Sequence record: MZ648215.1
Strand: one strand, 5' to 3'
DNA: 39,577 nucleotides
Origin: Escherichia phage vB_EcoP_IMEP24
The translations under genes were made by a program, and so were the position numbers. This document shows positions 12,838 through 25,764 of the stretch, in pieces. Each line of letters begins with the position of its first letter. Positions within the stretch are counted from its first letter, which is position 1. The notes below the pieces were generated by a model. That model searched no databases, was not told the origin of the DNA, and was given only the letters and a program-made list of their open reading frames with translations.

Positions 12838-13386
12838 ATGGAGGGTTCCATTCTAATGAGAAACTTAATCAACGGTAAGACTCTGACAGAAGTACAGCAG
12901 GTCCTTGGACCGAAGGAGGGCCTTGAGTCCTTCACTTCACGCTGCACTGGTCGGACGTTAGCTCGAGCACTACTGTTCATTTCTACAGTCATGACTCATG
13001 GTTCTCTCGACCTGAAGCCACTGCGCGGTAACTTGGGAGACCAAGAGATTGACTTGGTGAAATTCCAGATTAACCAACGTCTGGACCAGATGGGACTCGT
13101 TGGGTTCTCATGGTCTGGCGACGTTCTGAATTACTACCCGTTCGAGGAGTATCAAGATGTTAAAGAGATTGTACGTGAAGTTAAAGTCGAAGTATCACCT
13201 TTCAATGGGGAAATGGTGGCACCAAGAAGCTATGGTGTTGAGCAACATTCTGAAGGACCAGCGATTCACGTCGAAAGCGTGGAACAAAGCTACCCAGAAG
13301 TGCGCGTATCATCTAGCAAGAGTGCAGTAGTTGGTGAGATGGAAGTCTTGGAACCTCTGGTCCCGGACATGACTCCACCAGCTTAA
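12838..13386 (+). CDS. Hypothetical protein (182 aa; alternative start 12856)
   Basis: ORF in the gene 4.x slot; SD ggaggg favours ATG at 12856; no recognised similarity. Confidence 0.5.
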   Translation: MEGSILMRNLINGKTLTEVQQVLGPKEGLESFTSRCTGRTLARALLFISTVMTHGSLDLKPLRGNLGDQEIDLVKFQINQRLDQMGLVGFSWSGDVLNYYPFEEYQDVKEIVREVKVEVSPFNGEMVAPRSYGVEQHSEGPAIHVESVEQSYPEVRVSSSKSAVVGEMEVLEPLVPDMTPPA

Positions 13387-13403
13387 CTATCACTTTAGGA
13401 TAG
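13381..13403 (+). promoter_or_regulatory. Phage RNAP promoter, variant
   Basis: gcttaactatcactttagga; A to T at -3; +1 G at 13398. Confidence 0.55.
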
Positions 13404-13440
13404 ACTCAAGGTCATTCACACCGAGTGGCCTTTATGATTA
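13401..13440 (+). other. RNase III-type processing hairpin
   Basis: TAGACTCAAGGTCAT..GTGGCCTTTATGATTA; same box as 6081 and 36152. Confidence 0.5.
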
Positions 13441-13461
13441 GACTAAAGCGGAGGATTAACC

Positions 13462-15633
13462 ATGTTTGACCTTAAGGATATTTGGGGTTCGGACATCGAG
13501 ACCAACGGTCTCCTTGACACCGTGTCCCAGTTCCATTGTGGGGTCCTGATTAATGCCGAGTCGAATGAGACCCTTAAGTATGGGGTAGCGCCGATGGTCG
13601 GTATCATCGGTGGCTTCAAAGAGTATGTGCAGAAGGTGGAAGAGATTGCTGCAACGCCTACAGGTATGCTTGTCTTCCACAACGGTATCAACTATGACGT
13701 CCCTGCTATTGACAAGCTGAAACGTCTGTACTTTGGGAAACGCTTTAACTTCCCGAAACACAAGATGATTGATACCTTGGTGCTGGGCCGCTTGATGTAT
13801 CCCAACATTAAGTTCTCAGACATGGGAGCGGTGAAAGCTGGTCGTCTGCCACCTAATATGATGGGACGTCAGTCTCTTGAGGCTTGGGGTTATCGTCTCG
13901 GTGAGATGAAGGGTGAGTACAAACACGATTACGTTGCCAAGTGCAAGGCTGAAGGTATCGAATATAAGGCTGGGGACGAATGGTTGTTCCCGTCTCAGGA
14001 GATGCTGGACTATAACGTTCAAGACGTTGTGGTCACACTGGCGTTGTTCAAGAAGTTCCTGACTGACAAGTATTACTTCCAGTCTGAACAGTTCGCTTTC
14101 GAACAGATTTATGCGTTGCGTCTGGAACATGATGCTGCGTGGACCTGTGCGAAGATGGAACGTAACGGCTATCCGATGAACACCGAGATGGTCGAAGGCT
14201 TATATCGTGAACTCACCGTCAAACGTGCAGAGTTGCTGGACAAGCTGCGTTCGACTTTCGGTAGCTGGTATGCACCAAAGGGTGGCAAGGAGTTCTTCAG
14301 GCATCCACGGACAGGCAAGGACCTTCCGAAGTATCCACGAGTCGTGTATCCTAAGGTAGGGTCAGTATTCAAGAAGCCGAAGAACAAAGCTCAACGCTTA
14401 GGTCTGGAGCCTTGCGAGTTCGACTCACGAGACACGATGGAAGGAGCACCATTCACGCCAATCACTTACGTTGAGTTTAATCCGGGAAGCGGAGACCACT
14501 TAGCGAAAGTCTTGATGGAGCGTGGATGGGAGCCTGTAGACTTCACTGACACCGGGAAACCTGTAGTCGATGACGAGACGTTAGAACACGTTAAGTTACC
14601 AGACGAAGAGGCTCAGGCTTGCGTAGAGCTGGTCCGTGAGTATCTGGTAGTCCAGAAGCGCATCGGTCAGGCGGCTGAAGGTAAGAACGCATGGTTGAAA
14701 CTTGTAGGTCCAGACGGACGTATGCACGGTTCAATCAACCCATGCGGTGCAGTAACCGGACGTGCGACCCATAGTTCACCAAACATGGCTCAAGTCCCGG
14801 CTAACGGTGCTCCATATGGTGAGACCTGCCGCGGTGCTTTCGGTGCAGCGTGGAACAAGAAGGACGGCGAGCCAGACCCTTGGATTCAAGTGGGTGTGGA
14901 TGCCTCAGGTCTTGAGCTTCGTTGTCTGGGGAACCGAGCGGCCCCGTTTGATGGTGGAGCCTATGCGAAGACTGTGGTCGAAGGTGACATCCACTGGGCC
15001 AACGCAGTAAACGCTGGGTTAGCACCCAACGTCCCACGCGATAAGTCTAACCACGACCATGAGGCTTTCCGCAACAACGCTAAGACGTTCATCTATGCGT
15101 TCCTGTATGGTGCAGGGGCCGCTAAGATTGGACTGATAGTAGGAGGTGGTAAGAAGGAAGGTTCAGCTCTCATGAAGAAATTCATTGAGGGTACACCAGC
15201 CATCAAGGACCTCAGGGAAGCTGTGAGTAATACGTTAATCTCAGACTCTAAGTGGGTAGACGGAGAGAACATCGTCAAGTGGAAACGCCGTTGGTTGCGT
15301 GGACTTGATGGTCGCCGTATCCACATCCGGTCGCCACACTCAGCACTGAACGCCTTACTTCAAGGTGACGGTGCGGTAGTCTGTAAGCACTGGATTGTTG
15401 AGACTGAACGTATGCTCGAAGAGGCCGGGTATGTCCACGGCTGGGAAGGAGACTTTGCGTACATGGCATGGGTCCACGACGAATTGCAGATTGCAGCTCG
15501 GAACATGGAGATTGCCGAAGATATTCGCAGAATTGCTCAACTTGCTATGCGTAAGGTGGGTGAGTTCTATAACTTTAAATGTGTCCTTGATACCGAAGGT
15601 AAGATTGGACCAACGTGGAAGGAGTGTCACTAA
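13462..15633 (+). CDS. DNA polymerase (T7 gene 5)
   Basis: DIETNGLL exo motif, FHNGxxYDVPA, YNVQDVVVT, GSWYxPKGG, PNGAVTGRATH, DASGLELRCL, NAKTFIYxFLYGAG, YMAWVHDE; collinear with T7 gp5. Confidence 0.97.
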   Translation: MFDLKDIWGSDIETNGLLDTVSQFHCGVLINAESNETLKYGVAPMVGIIGGFKEYVQKVEEIAATPTGMLVFHNGINYDVPAIDKLKRLYFGKRFNFPKHKMIDTLVLGRLMYPNIKFSDMGAVKAGRLPPNMMGRQSLEAWGYRLGEMKGEYKHDYVAKCKAEGIEYKAGDEWLFPSQEMLDYNVQDVVVTLALFKKFLTDKYYFQSEQFAFEQIYALRLEHDAAWTCAKMERNGYPMNTEMVEGLYRELTVKRAELLDKLRSTFGSWYAPKGGKEFFRHPRTGKDLPKYPRVVYPKVGSVFKKPKNKAQRLGLEPCEFDSRDTMEGAPFTPITYVEFNPGSGDHLAKVLMERGWEPVDFTDTGKPVVDDETLEHVKLPDEEAQACVELVREYLVVQKRIGQAAEGKNAWLKLVGPDGRMHGSINPCGAVTGRATHSSPNMAQVPANGAPYGETCRGAFGAAWNKKDGEPDPWIQVGVDASGLELRCLGNRAAPFDGGAYAKTVVEGDIHWANAVNAGLAPNVPRDKSNHDHEAFRNNAKTFIYAFLYGAGAAKIGLIVGGGKKEGSALMKKFIEGTPAIKDLREAVSNTLISDSKWVDGENIVKWKRRWLRGLDGRRIHIRSPHSALNALLQGDGAVVCKHWIVETERMLEEAGYVHGWEGDFAYMAWVHDELQIAARNMEIAEDIRRIAQLAMRKVGEFYNFKCVLDTEGKIGPTWKECH

Positions 15634-15932
15634 TGGCTATGACCAAACGCGCTATCGTAAGTTTCAACCTTAAGGCTGTACTTCCTACAGACCAAGAGGA
15701 ATTAATTATTAAGGGTCTGCGAGAGCTGGCTAAAGGCGTTCACTCAGGTGAAATCAATCCTGACGCTAAGCAGCGCCATATGCTGACCCTGTGGCTGACG
15801 GAAGGTATGGACGCAGTGATTGAGTTTGTTCTGCGTGACAGCTTCCGTTCAATGATTAAAGAGGCTGCGCAGGAGTATTCAGACTCAGAGTTCTTCAGTT
15901 TATCACCAGCTACTGTGAGGTTCAAGCAATGA
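15633..15932 (+). CDS. Gene 5.5-like protein (99 aa)
   Basis: ATG overlapping polymerase stop (TAATG) with RBS ggaaggag; size and position as T7 gp5.5; start MAMTK. Confidence 0.65.
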   Translation: MAMTKRAIVSFNLKAVLPTDQEELIIKGLRELAKGVHSGEINPDAKQRHMLTLWLTEGMDAVIEFVLRDSFRSMIKEAAQEYSDSEFFSLSPATVRFKQ

Positions 15933-16138
15933 GTGAATACTTACGGGTCCTAGCGGCCCTTAAGTCCTGCCCGAAGACCTTCCAGTCCAACTATGTGCGC
16001 AACAACGCTGCACTTGTGGCTGAGGCTGCGAGTCGTGGACATCTAAGCTGTCTGTCTATGGATGGGCGTAACAATGGTGCGTGGGAGATTACCGCTGCTG
16101 GCACCAAGTTCCTGAACCAACATGGAGGATGTCTATGA
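15929..16138 (+). CDS. Gene 5.7 protein
   Basis: VLxAxKSCPKTFQSNYVRNNAxLVAEAASRGHxSCL..GAWEITAxGTxFL matches T7 gp5.7; 69 aa. Confidence 0.85.
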   Translation: MSEYLRVLAALKSCPKTFQSNYVRNNAALVAEAASRGHLSCLSMDGRNNGAWEITAAGTKFLNQHGGCL

Positions 16139-16446
16139 GCAATCCTGTAGACCGTATTGGTAATCGACTCAATGTTGGTGATTCCGTCATCTACGTTGGG
16201 GCTGGCTACACAACGCTAGAGCAAGAGGTCATCACTAAGATTAATGACAAGACTGTAAACCTTGGTGATAAGTCTCAGTGGGGTTCCTACACTCGCCGTC
16301 CATTCAACAGCGTGCTAAACCTTAGTGCCATCGAAGAGTTGGTAAAACGCTCCGATAAACTAGCTGCTCTTGAAGCTGGCGGAGTTGACAACTGGGAAGG
16401 ATACGGGTGGTGCTTCGAGGGTGAGGAGGATGAAGACGATGAGTGA
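16135..16446 (+). CDS. Hypothetical protein (103 aa) with acidic C-terminus, gene 5.9 position
   Basis: ATG overlapping 5.7 stop (ATGA), RBS ggagga; C-terminus EGEEDEDDE; positional analogue only. Confidence 0.5.
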   Translation: MSNPVDRIGNRLNVGDSVIYVGAGYTTLEQEVITKINDKTVNLGDKSQWGSYTRRPFNSVLNLSAIEELVKRSDKLAALEAGGVDNWEGYGWCFEGEEDEDDE

Positions 16447-17305
16447 GAAGAAGATAGCTCTGGTTCTAGATGGTGACTATCTGGTATTCTCTTCTATGGC
16501 TGCTGCCGAGGACGAGACAGACTGGGGTGATGACATCTGGACCCTTATCTGCGACCACGAGAAGGCTCGTCGTATCCTTGATAACACCATCGCTGAAATC
16601 GTTAAGAAGCGCAAGGCGTGGAAAGACGCTAAGATTGTGATGTGCTTTACTGACGATAACAACTGGCGTAAGGATGTTCTGCCTACCTATAAGGCCAACC
16701 GTAAAGGTTCTCGCAAGCCTGTAGGTTACAAGAAGTTCGTAGCCGAAGTGATGGCTGACCCACGGTTCAACAGCTTCCTGCGTCCTACGCTTGAGGGTGA
16801 TGACTGTATGGGTATCATCGGGACCAGACCTCAGATTGTAGGCTGTGACCATGCGGTGCTGGTGTCCTGCGATAAGGACTTCAAGACCATCCCGAACTGT
16901 GAGTTCTTCTGGTTAACTACTGGTGAAATCCTGAGTCATACGACTGCTGAGGCAGACTACTGGCACATGGAGCAAACCATCAAGGGTGACACTACAGATG
17001 GCTACGGTGGCATTCCTGGGATGGGTGAGGATACCACTCGTGCATTCCTTGACGAGCCGTACTACTTCGTGCAGGAGAGCCGTGAGCTTAAGACTGGTAA
17101 GAACAAAGGCCAGATTAAGACTGAGTGGAAGAAGTATCCGAAGCGTGAAGACATGACGCTGTGGGACTGCATGGTGACTCTGGCTGAGAAAGCTGGGATG
17201 ACTGAAGAAGAACTTCTGGTCCAAGCTCAGGTCGCTCGTATTTGTCGAGCCTCCGACTACGACCCTAAGTCCAAGGAGGTCATCCTGTGGACACCATCCA
17301 TGTAA
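16439..17305 (+). CDS. 5'-3' exonuclease (T7 gene 6)
   Basis: LVLDGDYLVF, CDHxKARxIL, KANRK, KPVGY, LEGDDxMGxI, SCDKDFKTIPNCxF, TIKGDxTDGY, GKNKGQ, TLWDC match T7 gp6; start ATG 16439 with RBS gaggagga. Confidence 0.94.
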   Translation: MSEKKIALVLDGDYLVFSSMAAAEDETDWGDDIWTLICDHEKARRILDNTIAEIVKKRKAWKDAKIVMCFTDDNNWRKDVLPTYKANRKGSRKPVGYKKFVAEVMADPRFNSFLRPTLEGDDCMGIIGTRPQIVGCDHAVLVSCDKDFKTIPNCEFFWLTTGEILSHTTAEADYWHMEQTIKGDTTDGYGGIPGMGEDTTRAFLDEPYYFVQESRELKTGKNKGQIKTEWKKYPKREDMTLWDCMVTLAEKAGMTEEELLVQAQVARICRASDYDPKSKEVILWTPSM

Positions 17306-17431
17306 TCTACTGGGCCGGACTTCTGGCCCTTTACTGCATGTACAAGTGGTTCGGGTCGAACAACCGTCCTAAACACTGAGTCTAACCGATAGTCATATCC
17401 TATCAATCCAACAGTCATCCATAGGTGAAAC

Positions 17432-17454
17432 ACTAAACTATCACTATAGGGACT
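17432..17454 (+). promoter_or_regulatory. Phage RNAP promoter (class III type, phi6.5-like)
   Basis: cactaaactatcactatagggac; +1 G at 17449. Confidence 0.85.
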
Positions 17455-18031: not shown

Positions 18032-18436
18032 ATGCTACCATATCTCAACTCACGCGAAGGTCGCCTCATGTGCGCTTGTCGCCTCTGGGAAGACGGGCAG
18101 TCTAACTTCAAGTCATTCGAGGACTTCAAGGCTCATACTTACCGTATGGCTGACGAGTTCGACGGTGAAGAGTACACAATCTACGATGTCTCAGGTCAAC
18201 CAGTAGCGTATCTCTACATGCTGGCTACCGCATCTTGGCACCGACCGACTCCCGGTCTTGACCTTTCAATCGTCGCTATTCGTCGTGACTCGCAGTCCTC
18301 CCGCAAGGTTCTTGAGACTGTAAGGCACATCATAGACGAAGAGTGCAAGCGTTGGGGTCTTGGCTGGTATTCTCGTGTCAAGCATGTTTCTGGGTCGGTA
18401 GACATCGTAACAACTAAGGAGATTAACCGTGGGTAA
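18032..18436 (+). CDS. Gene 7-like protein
   Basis: ORF of T7 gp7 size and position; similarity not verified. Confidence 0.55.
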   Translation: MLPYLNSREGRLMCACRLWEDGQSNFKSFEDFKAHTYRMADEFDGEEYTIYDVSGQPVAYLYMLATASWHRPTPGLDLSIVAIRRDSQSSRKVLETVRHIIDEECKRWGLGWYSRVKHVSGSVDIVTTKEINRG

Positions 18437-22603: not shown

Positions 22604-23170
22604 ATGGCTCAATACATTCCACTGAATTCTAACGATGACTTAGACGCCATCAACGATATGTTAGCAGCTATCGGTGAACCAGCAGTCCTACAGCTTGACG
22701 AGGGGAACGCTGACGTCTCGAACGCTCAACGTATCCTGCATCGTGTCAATCGTCAGGTCCAAGCTAAAGGCTGGAACTTTAACATCAACGAAGCTGCTGT
22801 CCTGACACCTGATGTCCAAGACAATAGGATTCGATTCTTGCCGTCATACCTTCGTGTAATGACCGCTGGGGCCACCAGCTACTACAGCAACATGGGTGGA
22901 TACCTGTACGACCTGTCCACTCAGTCAACCACTTTCACCGACCCCATCACGGTAGAGCTTGTGGAGATGAAGCCATTCTCCGAGATGCCTGTGGTCTTCA
23001 GGGACTACATCGTCACTAAAGCTAGCCGTGAGTTCAACGCTAAGTTCTTCGGTAGCCCAGAGTCAGAGCTATACCTTCGTGAGCAGGAAGCAGAACTCTA
23101 TCAGCAGGTTATGGAGTACGAGATGGACACTGGTCGCTACAACATGATGTCTGACATCGGGAGGGACTAA
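22604..23170 (+). CDS. Tail tubular protein A (T7 gene 11)
   Basis: IGEPxV, ANAxRILxxxNRQxQxxGWxFNI, YIVTKASRxFN, FFGxPE, MEYEMD match T7 gp11. Confidence 0.92.
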   Translation: MAQYIPLNSNDDLDAINDMLAAIGEPAVLQLDEGNADVSNAQRILHRVNRQVQAKGWNFNINEAAVLTPDVQDNRIRFLPSYLRVMTAGATSYYSNMGGYLYDLSTQSTTFTDPITVELVEMKPFSEMPVVFRDYIVTKASREFNAKFFGSPESELYLREQEAELYQQVMEYEMDTGRYNMMSDIGRD

Positions 23171-23397
23171 TGGCTAGTCACAACCTGAAGATTCACCGCC
23201 AGCACTTTGGTCCGGTACAGCTAGGTCTAAAGACAGCAGAGCTGAGACTTAACGACCGGGACTTTAAGGTTGGCGATTGGCTTATCCTGAATGAGTGGGA
23301 CAACGGGTATACTGGACAACAGGTAGCGCGTAAGGTTGTCCACATTGCTGACGTTGGTGACATCGCTGAAGGATACGTCCTAATGAGTATGATTTAA
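23170..23397 (+). CDS. DUF3850/ASCH-like small protein (75 aa)
   Basis: HxLKIxxxxFxxVxxGxKTxExRxNDRDFKVGDWLILNEW pattern recalled for DUF3850; start overlaps gene 11 stop (TAATG); RBS gggaggg. Confidence 0.6.
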   Translation: MASHNLKIHRQHFGPVQLGLKTAELRLNDRDFKVGDWLILNEWDNGYTGQQVARKVVHIADVGDIAEGYVLMSMI

Positions 23398-23406
23398 GGA
23401 GGGCCT

Positions 23407-25764
23407 ATGCCGCTTATCACACAAAGCATAAAAAATCTTAAAGGTGGCATTAGCCAGCAGCCTGATATACTGAGGTTCTCAGACCAAGGCGAGGCACAGG
23501 TTAACTGCTGGTCATCCGAGAGTGATGGCCTCCAGAAGCGCCCACCTACAGTCTTCAAGCGACGTCTTAACATCGACGTTGGGAGTAACCCTAAGTTCCA
23601 CCTGATTAACCGTGACGAGCATGAGCAGTATTACATCGTGTTCAATGGGTCCAACATTCAGGTAGTTGACTTGAGTGGCAATCAATACTCAGTGTCAGGT
23701 GCGGTAGACTACGTTAAGTCCTCCAACCCACGAGATGACATCCGTGTCGTTACCGTGGCAGACTATACGTTCGTCGTTAACCGTAAGGTTGTCGTCAAAG
23801 GTGGAAGCGAGAAGTCACACTCTGGTTATAACCGCAAAGCACGAGCTTTAATTAACCTGCGTGGTGGACAGTATGGTCGAACCCTTAAGGTGGGAATCAA
23901 CGGTGGAGTTAAGGTCTCGCATAAGCTACCAGCAGGTAATGATGCCGAGAATGACCCTCCTAAGGTGGATGCTCAGGCCATCGGTGCAGCTCTGAGAGAC
24001 CTTCTTGTTGCTGCCTATCCTACCTTCACGTTTGACCTTGGGTCTGGCTTCCTGCTAATCACAGCTCCTTCAGGGACAGACATTAACTCAGTGGAGACGG
24101 AGGATGGCTACGCTAACCAGCTAATAAGCCCAGTCCTAGACACTGTGCAGACAATCTCTAAACTACCTCTTGCAGCTCCTAATGGGTATATCATTAAGAT
24201 TCAAGGTGAGACAAACAGTAGCGCCGATGAATACTACGTGATGTATGACTCCAACACTAAGACGTGGAAGGAGACAGTGGAGCCGGGAGTTGTCACTGGG
24301 TTCGATGTCACCACAATGCCACATGCTCTGGTCAGACAGTCTGATGGCTCCTTTGAGTTCAAGACTCTGGATTGGTCCAAGCGTGGTGCTGGTAACGATG
24401 ACACAAACCCTATGCCTAGCTTCGTGGATGCTGCGATTAATGATGTGTTCTTCTACAGGAACAGACTTGGGTTCTTGTCAGGTGAGAACGTGATCATGAG
24501 CCGTTCAGCTAGCTACTTTGCGTTCTTCCCTAAGAGTGTGGCGACACTGAGCGATGATGACCCTATTGATGTAGCTGTAAGTCACCCTCGTATCTCAATC
24601 CTTAAGTACGCCGTTCCGTTTAGCGAGCAGCTACTACTTTGGTCGGATGAGGTTCAGTTCGTGATGACAAGCTCTGGGGTCCTTACCTCGAAGTCTATCC
24701 AGCTTGATGTAGGCTCAGAGTTTGCCTTAGGTGATAATGCCAGACCGTTCGCTGTAGGACGCTCAGTCTTCTTCTCAGCTCCTCGTGGGTCATTCACCAG
24801 CATTAAGCGATACTTCGCTGTAGCTGATGTGTCTGATGTGAAGGATGCCGATGATACAACTGGTCATGTATTGTCCTACATCCCTAACGGGGTGTTTGAT
24901 ATTCAAGGTACAGGGACTGAGAACTACATCTGCGTCAACTCTACAGGTGCATACAACAGAATCTACATCTACAAGTTCTTGTTTAAGGACGGCGTACAGC
25001 TTCAAGCCTCTTGGTCGCACTGGGAGTTCCCTATAGCTGATAAGATTCTGGCGTCTGCGTCGATTGGCTCTACCATGTTCATTGTTCGTCAGCACCAAGG
25101 TGGTGTGGACCTTGAGCACCTTAAGTTCATCAAGGAGGCAACTGACTTTCCATTAGAGCCGTATAGACTCCACGTTGACTCCAAGGTGTCTATGGTAATA
25201 CCAATTGGCTCATATAATGCTGACACCTATAAGACTACGGTTGACATTGGTGCTGCTTATGGTGGCAACGCTCCGTCTCCCGGTCGGTACTATCTGATTG
25301 ACAGTCAGGGTGCTTATTTGGACCTTGGGGAATTAACCAGTATATCTACTGTGGTTGTCCTCAACGGCGATTGGTCAGGACGCACAGTGTTCATCGGAAG
25401 GGCGTATCTGATGTCCTACAAGTTCTCACGGTTCCTGATTAAGATTGAAGACGATAGTGGTACTCAGTCTGAAGACACTGGCCGTCTACAGCTTCGTCGG
25501 GCTTGGGTAAACTACAAAGACACTGGCGCTCTGAGACTCATTGTCAGAAACGGTGAGCGGGAGTTCGTGAACACCTTTAACGGGTACACCCTTGGTCAGC
25601 AAACCATCGGGACTACCAACATTGGGGATGGACAATATCGCTTCGCTATGAATGGCAACGCATTAACCACGAGTCTAACCTTAGAGTCAGACTATCCTAC
25701 CCCAGTGTCCATCGTTGGGTGTGGCTGGGAGGCGTCATACGCTAAGAAAGCTCGTTCCGTCTAA
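23407..25764 (+). CDS. Tail tubular protein B (T7 gene 12)
   Basis: QSIKNLKGGISQQPDILR, WSSExxGLQKRPP, HLINRDEHEQYY, VTVADYTFVVNR, GRLQLRRAWVNY, GCGWE; collinear with T7 gp12. Confidence 0.97.
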   Translation: MPLITQSIKNLKGGISQQPDILRFSDQGEAQVNCWSSESDGLQKRPPTVFKRRLNIDVGSNPKFHLINRDEHEQYYIVFNGSNIQVVDLSGNQYSVSGAVDYVKSSNPRDDIRVVTVADYTFVVNRKVVVKGGSEKSHSGYNRKARALINLRGGQYGRTLKVGINGGVKVSHKLPAGNDAENDPPKVDAQAIGAALRDLLVAAYPTFTFDLGSGFLLITAPSGTDINSVETEDGYANQLISPVLDTVQTISKLPLAAPNGYIIKIQGETNSSADEYYVMYDSNTKTWKETVEPGVVTGFDVTTMPHALVRQSDGSFEFKTLDWSKRGAGNDDTNPMPSFVDAAINDVFFYRNRLGFLSGENVIMSRSASYFAFFPKSVATLSDDDPIDVAVSHPRISILKYAVPFSEQLLLWSDEVQFVMTSSGVLTSKSIQLDVGSEFALGDNARPFAVGRSVFFSAPRGSFTSIKRYFAVADVSDVKDADDTTGHVLSYIPNGVFDIQGTGTENYICVNSTGAYNRIYIYKFLFKDGVQLQASWSHWEFPIADKILASASIGSTMFIVRQHQGGVDLEHLKFIKEATDFPLEPYRLHVDSKVSMVIPIGSYNADTYKTTVDIGAAYGGNAPSPGRYYLIDSQGAYLDLGELTSISTVVVLNGDWSGRTVFIGRAYLMSYKFSRFLIKIEDDSGTQSEDTGRLQLRRAWVNYKDTGALRLIVRNGEREFVNTFNGYTLGQQTIGTTNIGDGQYRFAMNGNALTTSLTLESDYPTPVSIVGCGWEASYAKKARSV

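Follow-up and report, generated by a model that had tools for sequence, protein, structure and literature searches.

What kind of protein occupies the slot of gene 5.9, which in T7 encodes a small acidic RecBCD inhibitor, when the gene found there is about twice as long and its product looks unfamiliar? This question is raised by an open reading frame (ORF) of Escherichia phage vB_EcoP_IMEP24 (sequence record MZ648215.1), hereafter ORF X, which lies between genes 5.7 and 6 of a 39,577-nucleotide stretch of DNA that we analysed at its full length and refer to as the window. A first-pass annotation had placed ORF X in the gene 5.9 slot, had described its product as acidic and, recognising no similarity, had suggested that it may be a different anti-nuclease or DNA mimic. 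We find that ORF X is a conserved phage gene whose product joins a predicted N-terminal β-barrel to a C-terminal module that places it, in a broad sense, in the gp5.9 family.

A β-barrel fused to a gp5.9-family module

Residues 64–97 of the ORF X product match the Pfam family PF25708, 'Phage T7 gp5.9 RecBCD inhibitor' (Phage_T7_Gp5_9), with 50.8 bits (E = 1.5e-13; cut-off 24.5 bits) over profile positions 10–45 of 46, and two PHROG families labelled 'host RecBCD nuclease inhibitor' are matched as well (phrog_6234, E = 1.2e-11; phrog_4790, E = 3.8e-9). An exhaustive profile search with the C-terminal module, which covered 1.84 billion cluster representatives (50% identity; E ≤ 0.001), returned 595 hits, most of them proteins of 46–75 amino acids built from a strand, a helix, the motif LEAxGVDNWxGY and an acidic tail. 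Ten residues are at least 90% conserved in 123 sequences (L76, L79, E80, G83, V84, D85, N86, W87, G89 and Y90), and the ORF X product has all ten; every one of the 13 two-domain relatives likewise matches PF25708. NCBIfam gave no match to the whole protein or to either half, and a profile search of Protein Data Bank (PDB) sequences yielded no relative below E = 0.09, its GP-PDE and ATPase hits being dismissed as chance. Judged by profile score, signature and slot, the ORF X product is a gp5.9-family member in the broad sense. GVDNW-type members in phages of Clostridium, Enterococcus, Erwinia, Xanthomonas and Acinetobacter carry the label 'RecBCD inhibitor' by transfer.

The acidity reported for the protein is genuine and confined to residues 63–103. 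With an isoelectric point (pI) of 4.34, the whole chain has a net charge of −10, which divides into +1 for residues 1–62 (pI 8.1) and −11 for residues 63–103, of which residues 92–103 carry −8; the C-terminal end reads ...EGYGWCFEGEEDEDDE, as the first-pass annotation had given it. An AlphaFold2 model of the single chain, built on the 123-sequence alignment, has a mean predicted local distance difference test (pLDDT) score of 88.3 and a predicted template modelling (pTM) score of 0.71, and arranges barrel, helix, turn and tail in that order. Its strands lie at residues 17–21, 28–36, 40–43, 53–56 and 60–62, and the helix at 63–81 begins right after the last barrel strand and is followed by the GGVDNW turn and by short helices at 90–94 and 98–101, with confidence dropping in the tail. 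An earlier model from an 8-sequence alignment was poor (pLDDT 55) and was discarded for this one; a Foldseek search of the PDB with the discarded model returned nothing significant.

Within the predicted helix, L69, L76 and L79 are nearly invariant across the gp5.9 family, and the spacing of I66, L69, L76 and L79 would fit a coiled coil without being diagnostic of one. The signature motif that follows, LEAGGVDNWEGY, occurs only once in the six-frame translation of the window. The tail remains acidic yet varies in sequence among family members, and its low-confidence prediction suggests that residues 95–103 are probably flexible.

The N-terminal part accounts for the doubled size of the product (103 versus 52 amino acids in T7 gp5.9). 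The first-pass annotation had given this difference correctly; the extra length is a separate β-barrel domain and does not make for a larger mimic. In the AlphaFold2 model the five-stranded barrel is superposable on known KOW/Tudor/SH3-like members. Residues 6–64 match phrog_2251, a family of unknown function (E = 6.1e-12), and scores against other families fall below their cut-offs (DUF7205, 16 bits against 27; Phage_ProQ_C_like, 14.7 against 27), while precomputed annotation lists PF23835 for the seven collinear homologues described below. All barrel matches in BFVD are uncharacterised. The barrel also exists as a stand-alone ORF of about 70 amino acids.

ORF X is a conserved gene under purifying selection

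A homologue search covering 5.8 billion proteins returned eight relatives, seven of which (P0001–P0007; 101–104 amino acids) are full-length and collinear with the ORF X product, are 58–98% identical to it, come from independent metagenomes and have a domain junction free of insertions and deletions. In all six homologue contigs fetched, each a T7-like metagenomic contig, the gene sits between 5.7 and gene 6. The ratio of non-synonymous to synonymous substitution rates (dN/dS) is 0.07–0.14 against the metagenomic homologues, and against two homologues at about 91–93% identity it is 0.07–0.09 overall and low in both halves. ORF X is therefore a real, conserved phage gene under purifying selection in both of its halves. 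A tblastn search of 50,697 deposited phage records with the whole protein matched the barrel half alone, in 6 records, and gave no homologue over the full length, so this collection of isolates lacks the fused form.

The gene is also tightly built into its surroundings. As had been noted in the first-pass annotation, ORF X is coupled to both neighbours: its ATG overlaps the TGA of the 69-amino-acid gene 5.7 homologue (ATGA, 16135–16138), and the ATG of gene 6, at 16439, lies in an 8-nucleotide overlap with the last codons of ORF X (ATGAGTGA). Neither the [A/G]TGA junction nor the GGAGG varies across six homologous loci. An alternative in-frame ATG at 16129 was rejected as the start, the homologues having CTG or TTG at that site. 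Because the flanking genes are 5.5 (PF11247), 5.7 (phrog_1334) and the 5′–3′ exonuclease (phrog_107), all recognised by profile, the earlier description of a gene 5.9 slot is correct. The window as a whole comprises a complete genome, T7-like and of the Kayfunavirus type, and a 901-nucleotide query around the site is 83–97% identical to Kayfunavirus, Escherichia and Salmonella phages only across 5.5/5.7 and gene 6, with no match to those phages across ORF X itself.

These data bear directly on the possibility of an artefact or a decaying gene, in which faulty assembly or a frameshift error turned two genes into one, or in which they were joined recently and to no functional effect. In favour of such an origin, the two modules are separate genes in relatives, and PE3-1 and LM33_P1 have nothing in the slot, so that the gene is dispensable. 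Nevertheless, we regard an artefact as effectively refuted by the same indel-free junction in seven independent homologues of such varied identity, the low dN/dS, the conserved start and stop coupling signals, and the same N-to-C architecture in distant phages.

The barrel and the GVDNW module are repeatedly linked

Among T7-like phages, the 5.7–6 junction serves as an accessory slot of hypervariable content within flanking DNA that is 92–97% identical. It holds nothing in PE3-1 and LM33_P1, only a T7-type gp5.9 in T7 and T3, only a 78-amino-acid GVNNW-type protein in Hafnia phage yong1, and only the barrel in EcoDS1 and in one IMG/VR T7-like contig. Both modules are present in JSS2 and KA1-1 (a gp5.9 gene, then a barrel gene), in Pseudomonas phage Psari100M (a barrel gene, then an ATGA-coupled GVDNW gene) and, as the barrel::GVDNW fusion, in this window and its metagenomic relatives. 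In Bas105 the slot encodes an unrelated acidic protein of 110 amino acids. A profile search with a narrower barrel alignment found one IMG/VR locus.

The split versions differ from ORF X in informative ways. In the Berlinvirus-type pair (Salmonella phage JSS2, UVK85842/UVK85843; Klebsiella phage KA1-1, gp36/gp37), the same slot contains two genes with the acidic module first; the downstream ORFs of 69–71 amino acids are 64–70% identical to residues 1–63 here, and the Berlinvirus-type gp5.9 retains a T7-like N-terminal strand (VTREAWNDLQ). Psari100M, a Pifdecavirus, has the same order as ORF X, barrel then GVDNW with translational coupling, but as two polypeptides of 67 and 81 amino acids, the second of which is extended by a helical segment at its N-terminus and ends in a Cys-rich acidic tail. 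In addition, nine distant clusters (50% identity) fuse a barrel to a GVDNW module through a linker and a complete family N-terminal strand, and all nine match PF25708. In the one of these whose context was examined, P0014, the gene lies between ligase and 5′–3′ exonuclease genes on phage contigs of 41–82 kb.

Adjacency in both orders together with independent fusions constitutes 'Rosetta-stone' evidence and thus suggests that the barrel and the GVDNW module work together. Compared at the DNA level, the JSS2 arrangement and the fused gene of the P0007 phage have their modules in permuted order, and on this ground we rejected the idea that stop-codon read-through turned a JSS2-like arrangement into the fusion. 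A resemblance of TRRPFNSV to TREAWNDL weakly suggests, as a speculation, that the fusion arose by tandem duplication with complementary truncation.

The barrel is also found without a GVDNW neighbour. On an unrelated phage contig, L010 (991–1488), a barrel homologue encoded by itself (P0049) precedes a 165-amino-acid ORF, with primase and helicase genes further downstream and no GVDNW gene adjacent. The 165-amino-acid ORF looks like a macro domain protein by sequence.

A proposed decoy of the gp5.9 kind and the evidence against it

What might the fused protein do? Reasoning by analogy with T7 gp5.9, we lean slightly towards a joint reading in which the C-terminal module is an acidic decoy of the gp5.9 kind, directed against RecBCD, with the barrel in an accessory role. 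T7 gp5.9, an acidic DNA mimic, forms a dimer whose coiled coil occupies the DNA-binding site of RecBCD and blocks DNA binding (PMC9836394). From this precedent we infer that the ORF X module would most likely self-associate through its helix, that it would act as a decoy for a host DNA-end-processing enzyme, which in an enterobacterial host would be RecBCD, and that linear phage DNA and replication and recombination intermediates would be protected in this way while the gp6 exonuclease acts. The barrel would most likely assist the acidic module, by offering a further docking surface or by taking the place of the N-terminal strand that braces stand-alone members.

T7 and T3 gp5.9 share with ORF X the slot (5.7, then X, then 6), the PF25708 match, small size and strong acidity, and a β-strand followed by an amphipathic helix, and they too are products of a non-essential accessory gene of the class II region. 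Charge is comparable, at −8 over 52 amino acids in T7 gp5.9 and −11 in the 41-residue C-terminal module here. Lambda Gam and T7 Ocr are likewise small and acidic and compete for DNA-binding sites, RecBCD being the target of Gam, but no sequence or fold relationship of either protein to ORF X was detected in the Pfam and PDB searches. The window encodes a separate Ocr homologue, gene 0.3 (1275–1835, + strand; 186 amino acids), residues 8–96 of which match PF08684 (E = 1.6e-31). T7 Ocr has about 117 amino acids; the homologue carries about 90 further C-terminal residues without a Pfam match, and is thus a second protein of a DNA-mimic family with an extra part.

Several observations nevertheless weigh against a gp5.9-like decoy function. 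The first-pass annotation was right that direct similarity to T7 gp5.9 is missing (BLASTP, insignificant at E = 6.8), although its suggestion of a different kind of mimic does not sit with membership of PF25708. In the PDB profile search, gp5.9 chains were not retrieved at E ≤ 10, and hhalign gave a probability of 1.6% for the mainstream family profile against T7 gp5.9. T7 gp5.9 itself (L004, 960–1118) lacks the GVDNW motif and scores 27.8 bits on PF25708, on which GVDNW-type proteins score 36–63 bits. According to a cryo-EM study, nine acidic residues of T7 gp5.9 form ion pairs with RecB or RecC (D4, D11, D15, D21, E24, E36, D38, E39 and E45; PMC9836394, Table 1). Mapped through the JSS2 alignments, D11 corresponds to R55, D15 to S59, D21 to E67 and E24 to V70, and D4 and T7 residues 36–45 have no homologous positions here, so that about one of the nine acidic contacts is matched (D21, as E67). 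The T7 region that grips the RecB arm (E36–E45) is replaced by the Gly-Gly turn and motif. Moreover, the N-terminus of T7 gp5.9 inserts near the RecBCD core, and an N-terminal His-tag raises the half-maximal inhibitory concentration (IC50) from 1.3 to 23 nM (PMC9836394); a 62-residue barrel at this position therefore argues against an identical binding mode. Our literature search found no experiment on any GVDNW-type member, and searches on the GVDNW motif, DUF7205, PF25708 and PF24203 found nothing relevant. GVDNW-type modules also occur in phages of Clostridium and Enterococcus, so the target may differ; these hosts use AddAB/RexAB. We rejected recent in vivo experiments with T3 gp5.9 (PMC13192584) as evidence on the GVDNW type, as T3 gp5.9 differs from T7 gp5.9 by one residue.

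Structural differences run in the same direction. T7 gp5.9 is a 52-amino-acid continuous coiled coil without the GVDNW turn, its long uninterrupted helix (modelled residues 1–49) accompanied by a free N-terminal strand. By contrast, the ORF X product has a helix of about 19 residues, a Gly-Gly, the motif and a poly-acidic tail, and the last strand of its 62-amino-acid barrel is what precedes the helix. The link between the two is transitive and passes through the 61-amino-acid gp5.9 of Berlinvirus JSS2. Residues 1–30 of that protein are 47% identical to T7 gp5.9 (E = 9e-10), and its C-terminal two-thirds (helix, motif and tail) are 51% identical to residues 53–103 here (E = 5e-12); the three proteins overlap in only about 22 residues, made up of the strand together with the helix's first half. 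On these alignments and profile scores, T7 gp5.9 is an outlier of the family that bears its name.

Alternative functions

The same observations give weight to a reading in which the GVDNW module is homologous to gp5.9 and has a different or broader target, such as another host complex that binds DNA (MukBEF, for example), AddAB-type enzymes or a defence system, with the invariant motif serving for specific protein docking and not for generic DNA mimicry. The strongest conservation falls in the non-acidic motif (G83, V84, D85, N86, W87, G89 and Y90) and not in acidic residues, the T7 residues that contact RecBCD show no conservation here, a domain blocks the N-terminus, and phages of Gram-positive bacteria carry the module too. 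Even T7 gp5.9 acts on at least two targets and triggers Sir2-HerA (PMC7617805, PMC13434337); it inhibits MukBEF as well as RecBCD (PMC7617805) and does not inhibit AddAB (PMC9836394). We nevertheless hold a different target to be fairly unlikely, as ORF X occupies the exact gene 5.9 slot of a genome with no second gp5.9-like gene, the Berlinvirus bridging protein unites both sequence types in one polypeptide, and most members have an acidic tail.

Alternatively, the effector role could fall to the barrel, as a KOW/Tudor-like domain that binds nucleic acid or protein and serves phage DNA metabolism, with helix, GVDNW motif and tail mainly a dimerisation or regulatory appendage. That the barrel lacks a GVDNW neighbour in L010, where it stands alone near a primase/helicase gene, indicates that it has a function of its own, and it occurs alone in the 5.7–6 slot of EcoDS1 and the IMG/VR T7-like contig. 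A fold of this class is commonly that of an adaptor for nucleic acid or protein, and the gene is coupled to the exonuclease gene. On this reading the tail might, like the acidic tails of T7 gp2.5 and gp4, contact replisome or recombination proteins of the phage. In gp2.5 and gp4, however, a C-terminal aromatic residue is essential, and the ORF X tail has none. The C-terminal module is far more widespread alone, in most of the 595 hits, and is itself strongly constrained, and all BFVD matches of the barrel are uncharacterised. An effector barrel therefore strikes us as improbable.

Compared with these alternatives, the decoy reading remains the one we prefer. A bolder version of the linkage between the modules is tentative, and we would sooner doubt it than adopt it: barrel and GVDNW module would form a two-part counter-host unit in which the motif is a specific docking element and the target or binding mode is unlike that of T7 gp5.9. 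T7/T3 gp5.9 would then be a derived and atypical offshoot, and the label 'RecBCD inhibitor' would be partly wrong across hundreds of clusters, including those of phages whose hosts have AddAB.

Transcription unit and other features of the window

Scanning the window for the phage RNA polymerase promoter consensus TAAACTATCACTATAGG identified 12 sites, compared with 0.07 expected by chance, all on the + strand (2529, 6063, 7749, 8711, 10832, 13383, 17434, 20255, 21242, 25791, 33070 and 38797); six late sites share the extended form CTAAACTATCACTATAGGGA. The unit from 13383 to 17434 holds genes 5, 5.5, 5.7, ORF X and 6, and the consensus scan found no promoter inside ORF X. ORF X is best explained as a functional class II (DNA-metabolism) gene of a Kayfunavirus-like phage, co-transcribed and translationally coupled with 5.7 and 6 (Table 1).

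Table 1 Features of ORF X and its transcription unit in the window
Feature	Coordinates	Strand	Basis and remarks
Phage RNA polymerase promoter upstream of gene 5	13383..13399	+	TAAACTATCACTATAGG match with 2 mismatches; starts the unit 5 - 5.5 - 5.7 - X - 6
Gene 5.7 homologue, 69 amino acids	15929..16138	+	phrog_1334, E = 7e-39; stop overlaps ORF X start
Shine-Dalgarno sequence GGAGGA	16124..16129	+	5 nucleotides upstream of the ORF X ATG; read from the sequence
ORF X, coding sequence of the two-domain protein, 103 codons and stop	16135..16446	+	ATG 16135-16137 and TGA 16444-16446, read from the sequence; homologues P0001-P0007; dN/dS
Residues 1-62, predicted five-stranded KOW/Tudor/SH3-like β-barrel, near neutral (pI 8.1)	16135..16320	+	
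Residues 63-81, predicted amphipathic helix, first part of the gp5.9-family module	16321..16377	+	AlphaFold2, pLDDT about 93-97
Residues 79-90, family signature motif LEAGGVDNWEGY	16369..16404	+	Conservation in 123 sequences; absent from T7/T3 gp5.9
Residues 95-103, acidic tail EGEEDEDDE	16417..16443	+	Low-confidence prediction, pLDDT 48-66
Gene 6, 5′-3′ exonuclease	16439..17305	+	phrog_107, E = 6e-80; PF02739
phi6.5-type promoter, end of unit	17434..17450	+	Identical to an annotated promoter of phage PE3-1

Three further ORFs on the + strand were noted in the window. One of 182 amino acids (12838–13386) separates the primase-helicase gene from the DNA polymerase gene, and one of 134 amino acids (18032–18436) follows gene 6.7; neither has a Pfam match. 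The third (23170–23397) encodes a 75-amino-acid DUF3850/ASCH-domain protein (PF12961, E = 1.9e-19) between the large late-region ORFs 22604–23170 and 23407–25764; it is start/stop-coupled to the upstream ORF and looks like an accessory insertion in the structural module.

Implications for the gp5.9 family

What is new here is modest: the fused barrel::gp5.9-family architecture, the recurrent linkage of a KOW/Tudor-like domain to this family, and the recognition of T7 gp5.9 as atypical. Automated pipelines would already label the C-terminal part gp5.9-like, and close relatives can do without the gene; ORF X therefore does not represent a new kind of system, and should its product simply inhibit RecBCD, it would be a further accessory gene of the ordinary sort. 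Much phage–host conflict centres on RecBCD, whose inhibitors protect phage DNA yet set off sensors of abortive infection, among them retron Ec48, P2 OLD and Sir2-HerA. Mechanistic knowledge of the gp5.9 family comes entirely from T7/T3 gp5.9, and the mainstream GVDNW form comprises at least 595 clusters at 50% identity. The fused protein, together with the split versions in JSS2, KA1-1 and Psari100M, offers a simple system in which to address RecBCD inhibition, its mode and the contribution of the barrel.

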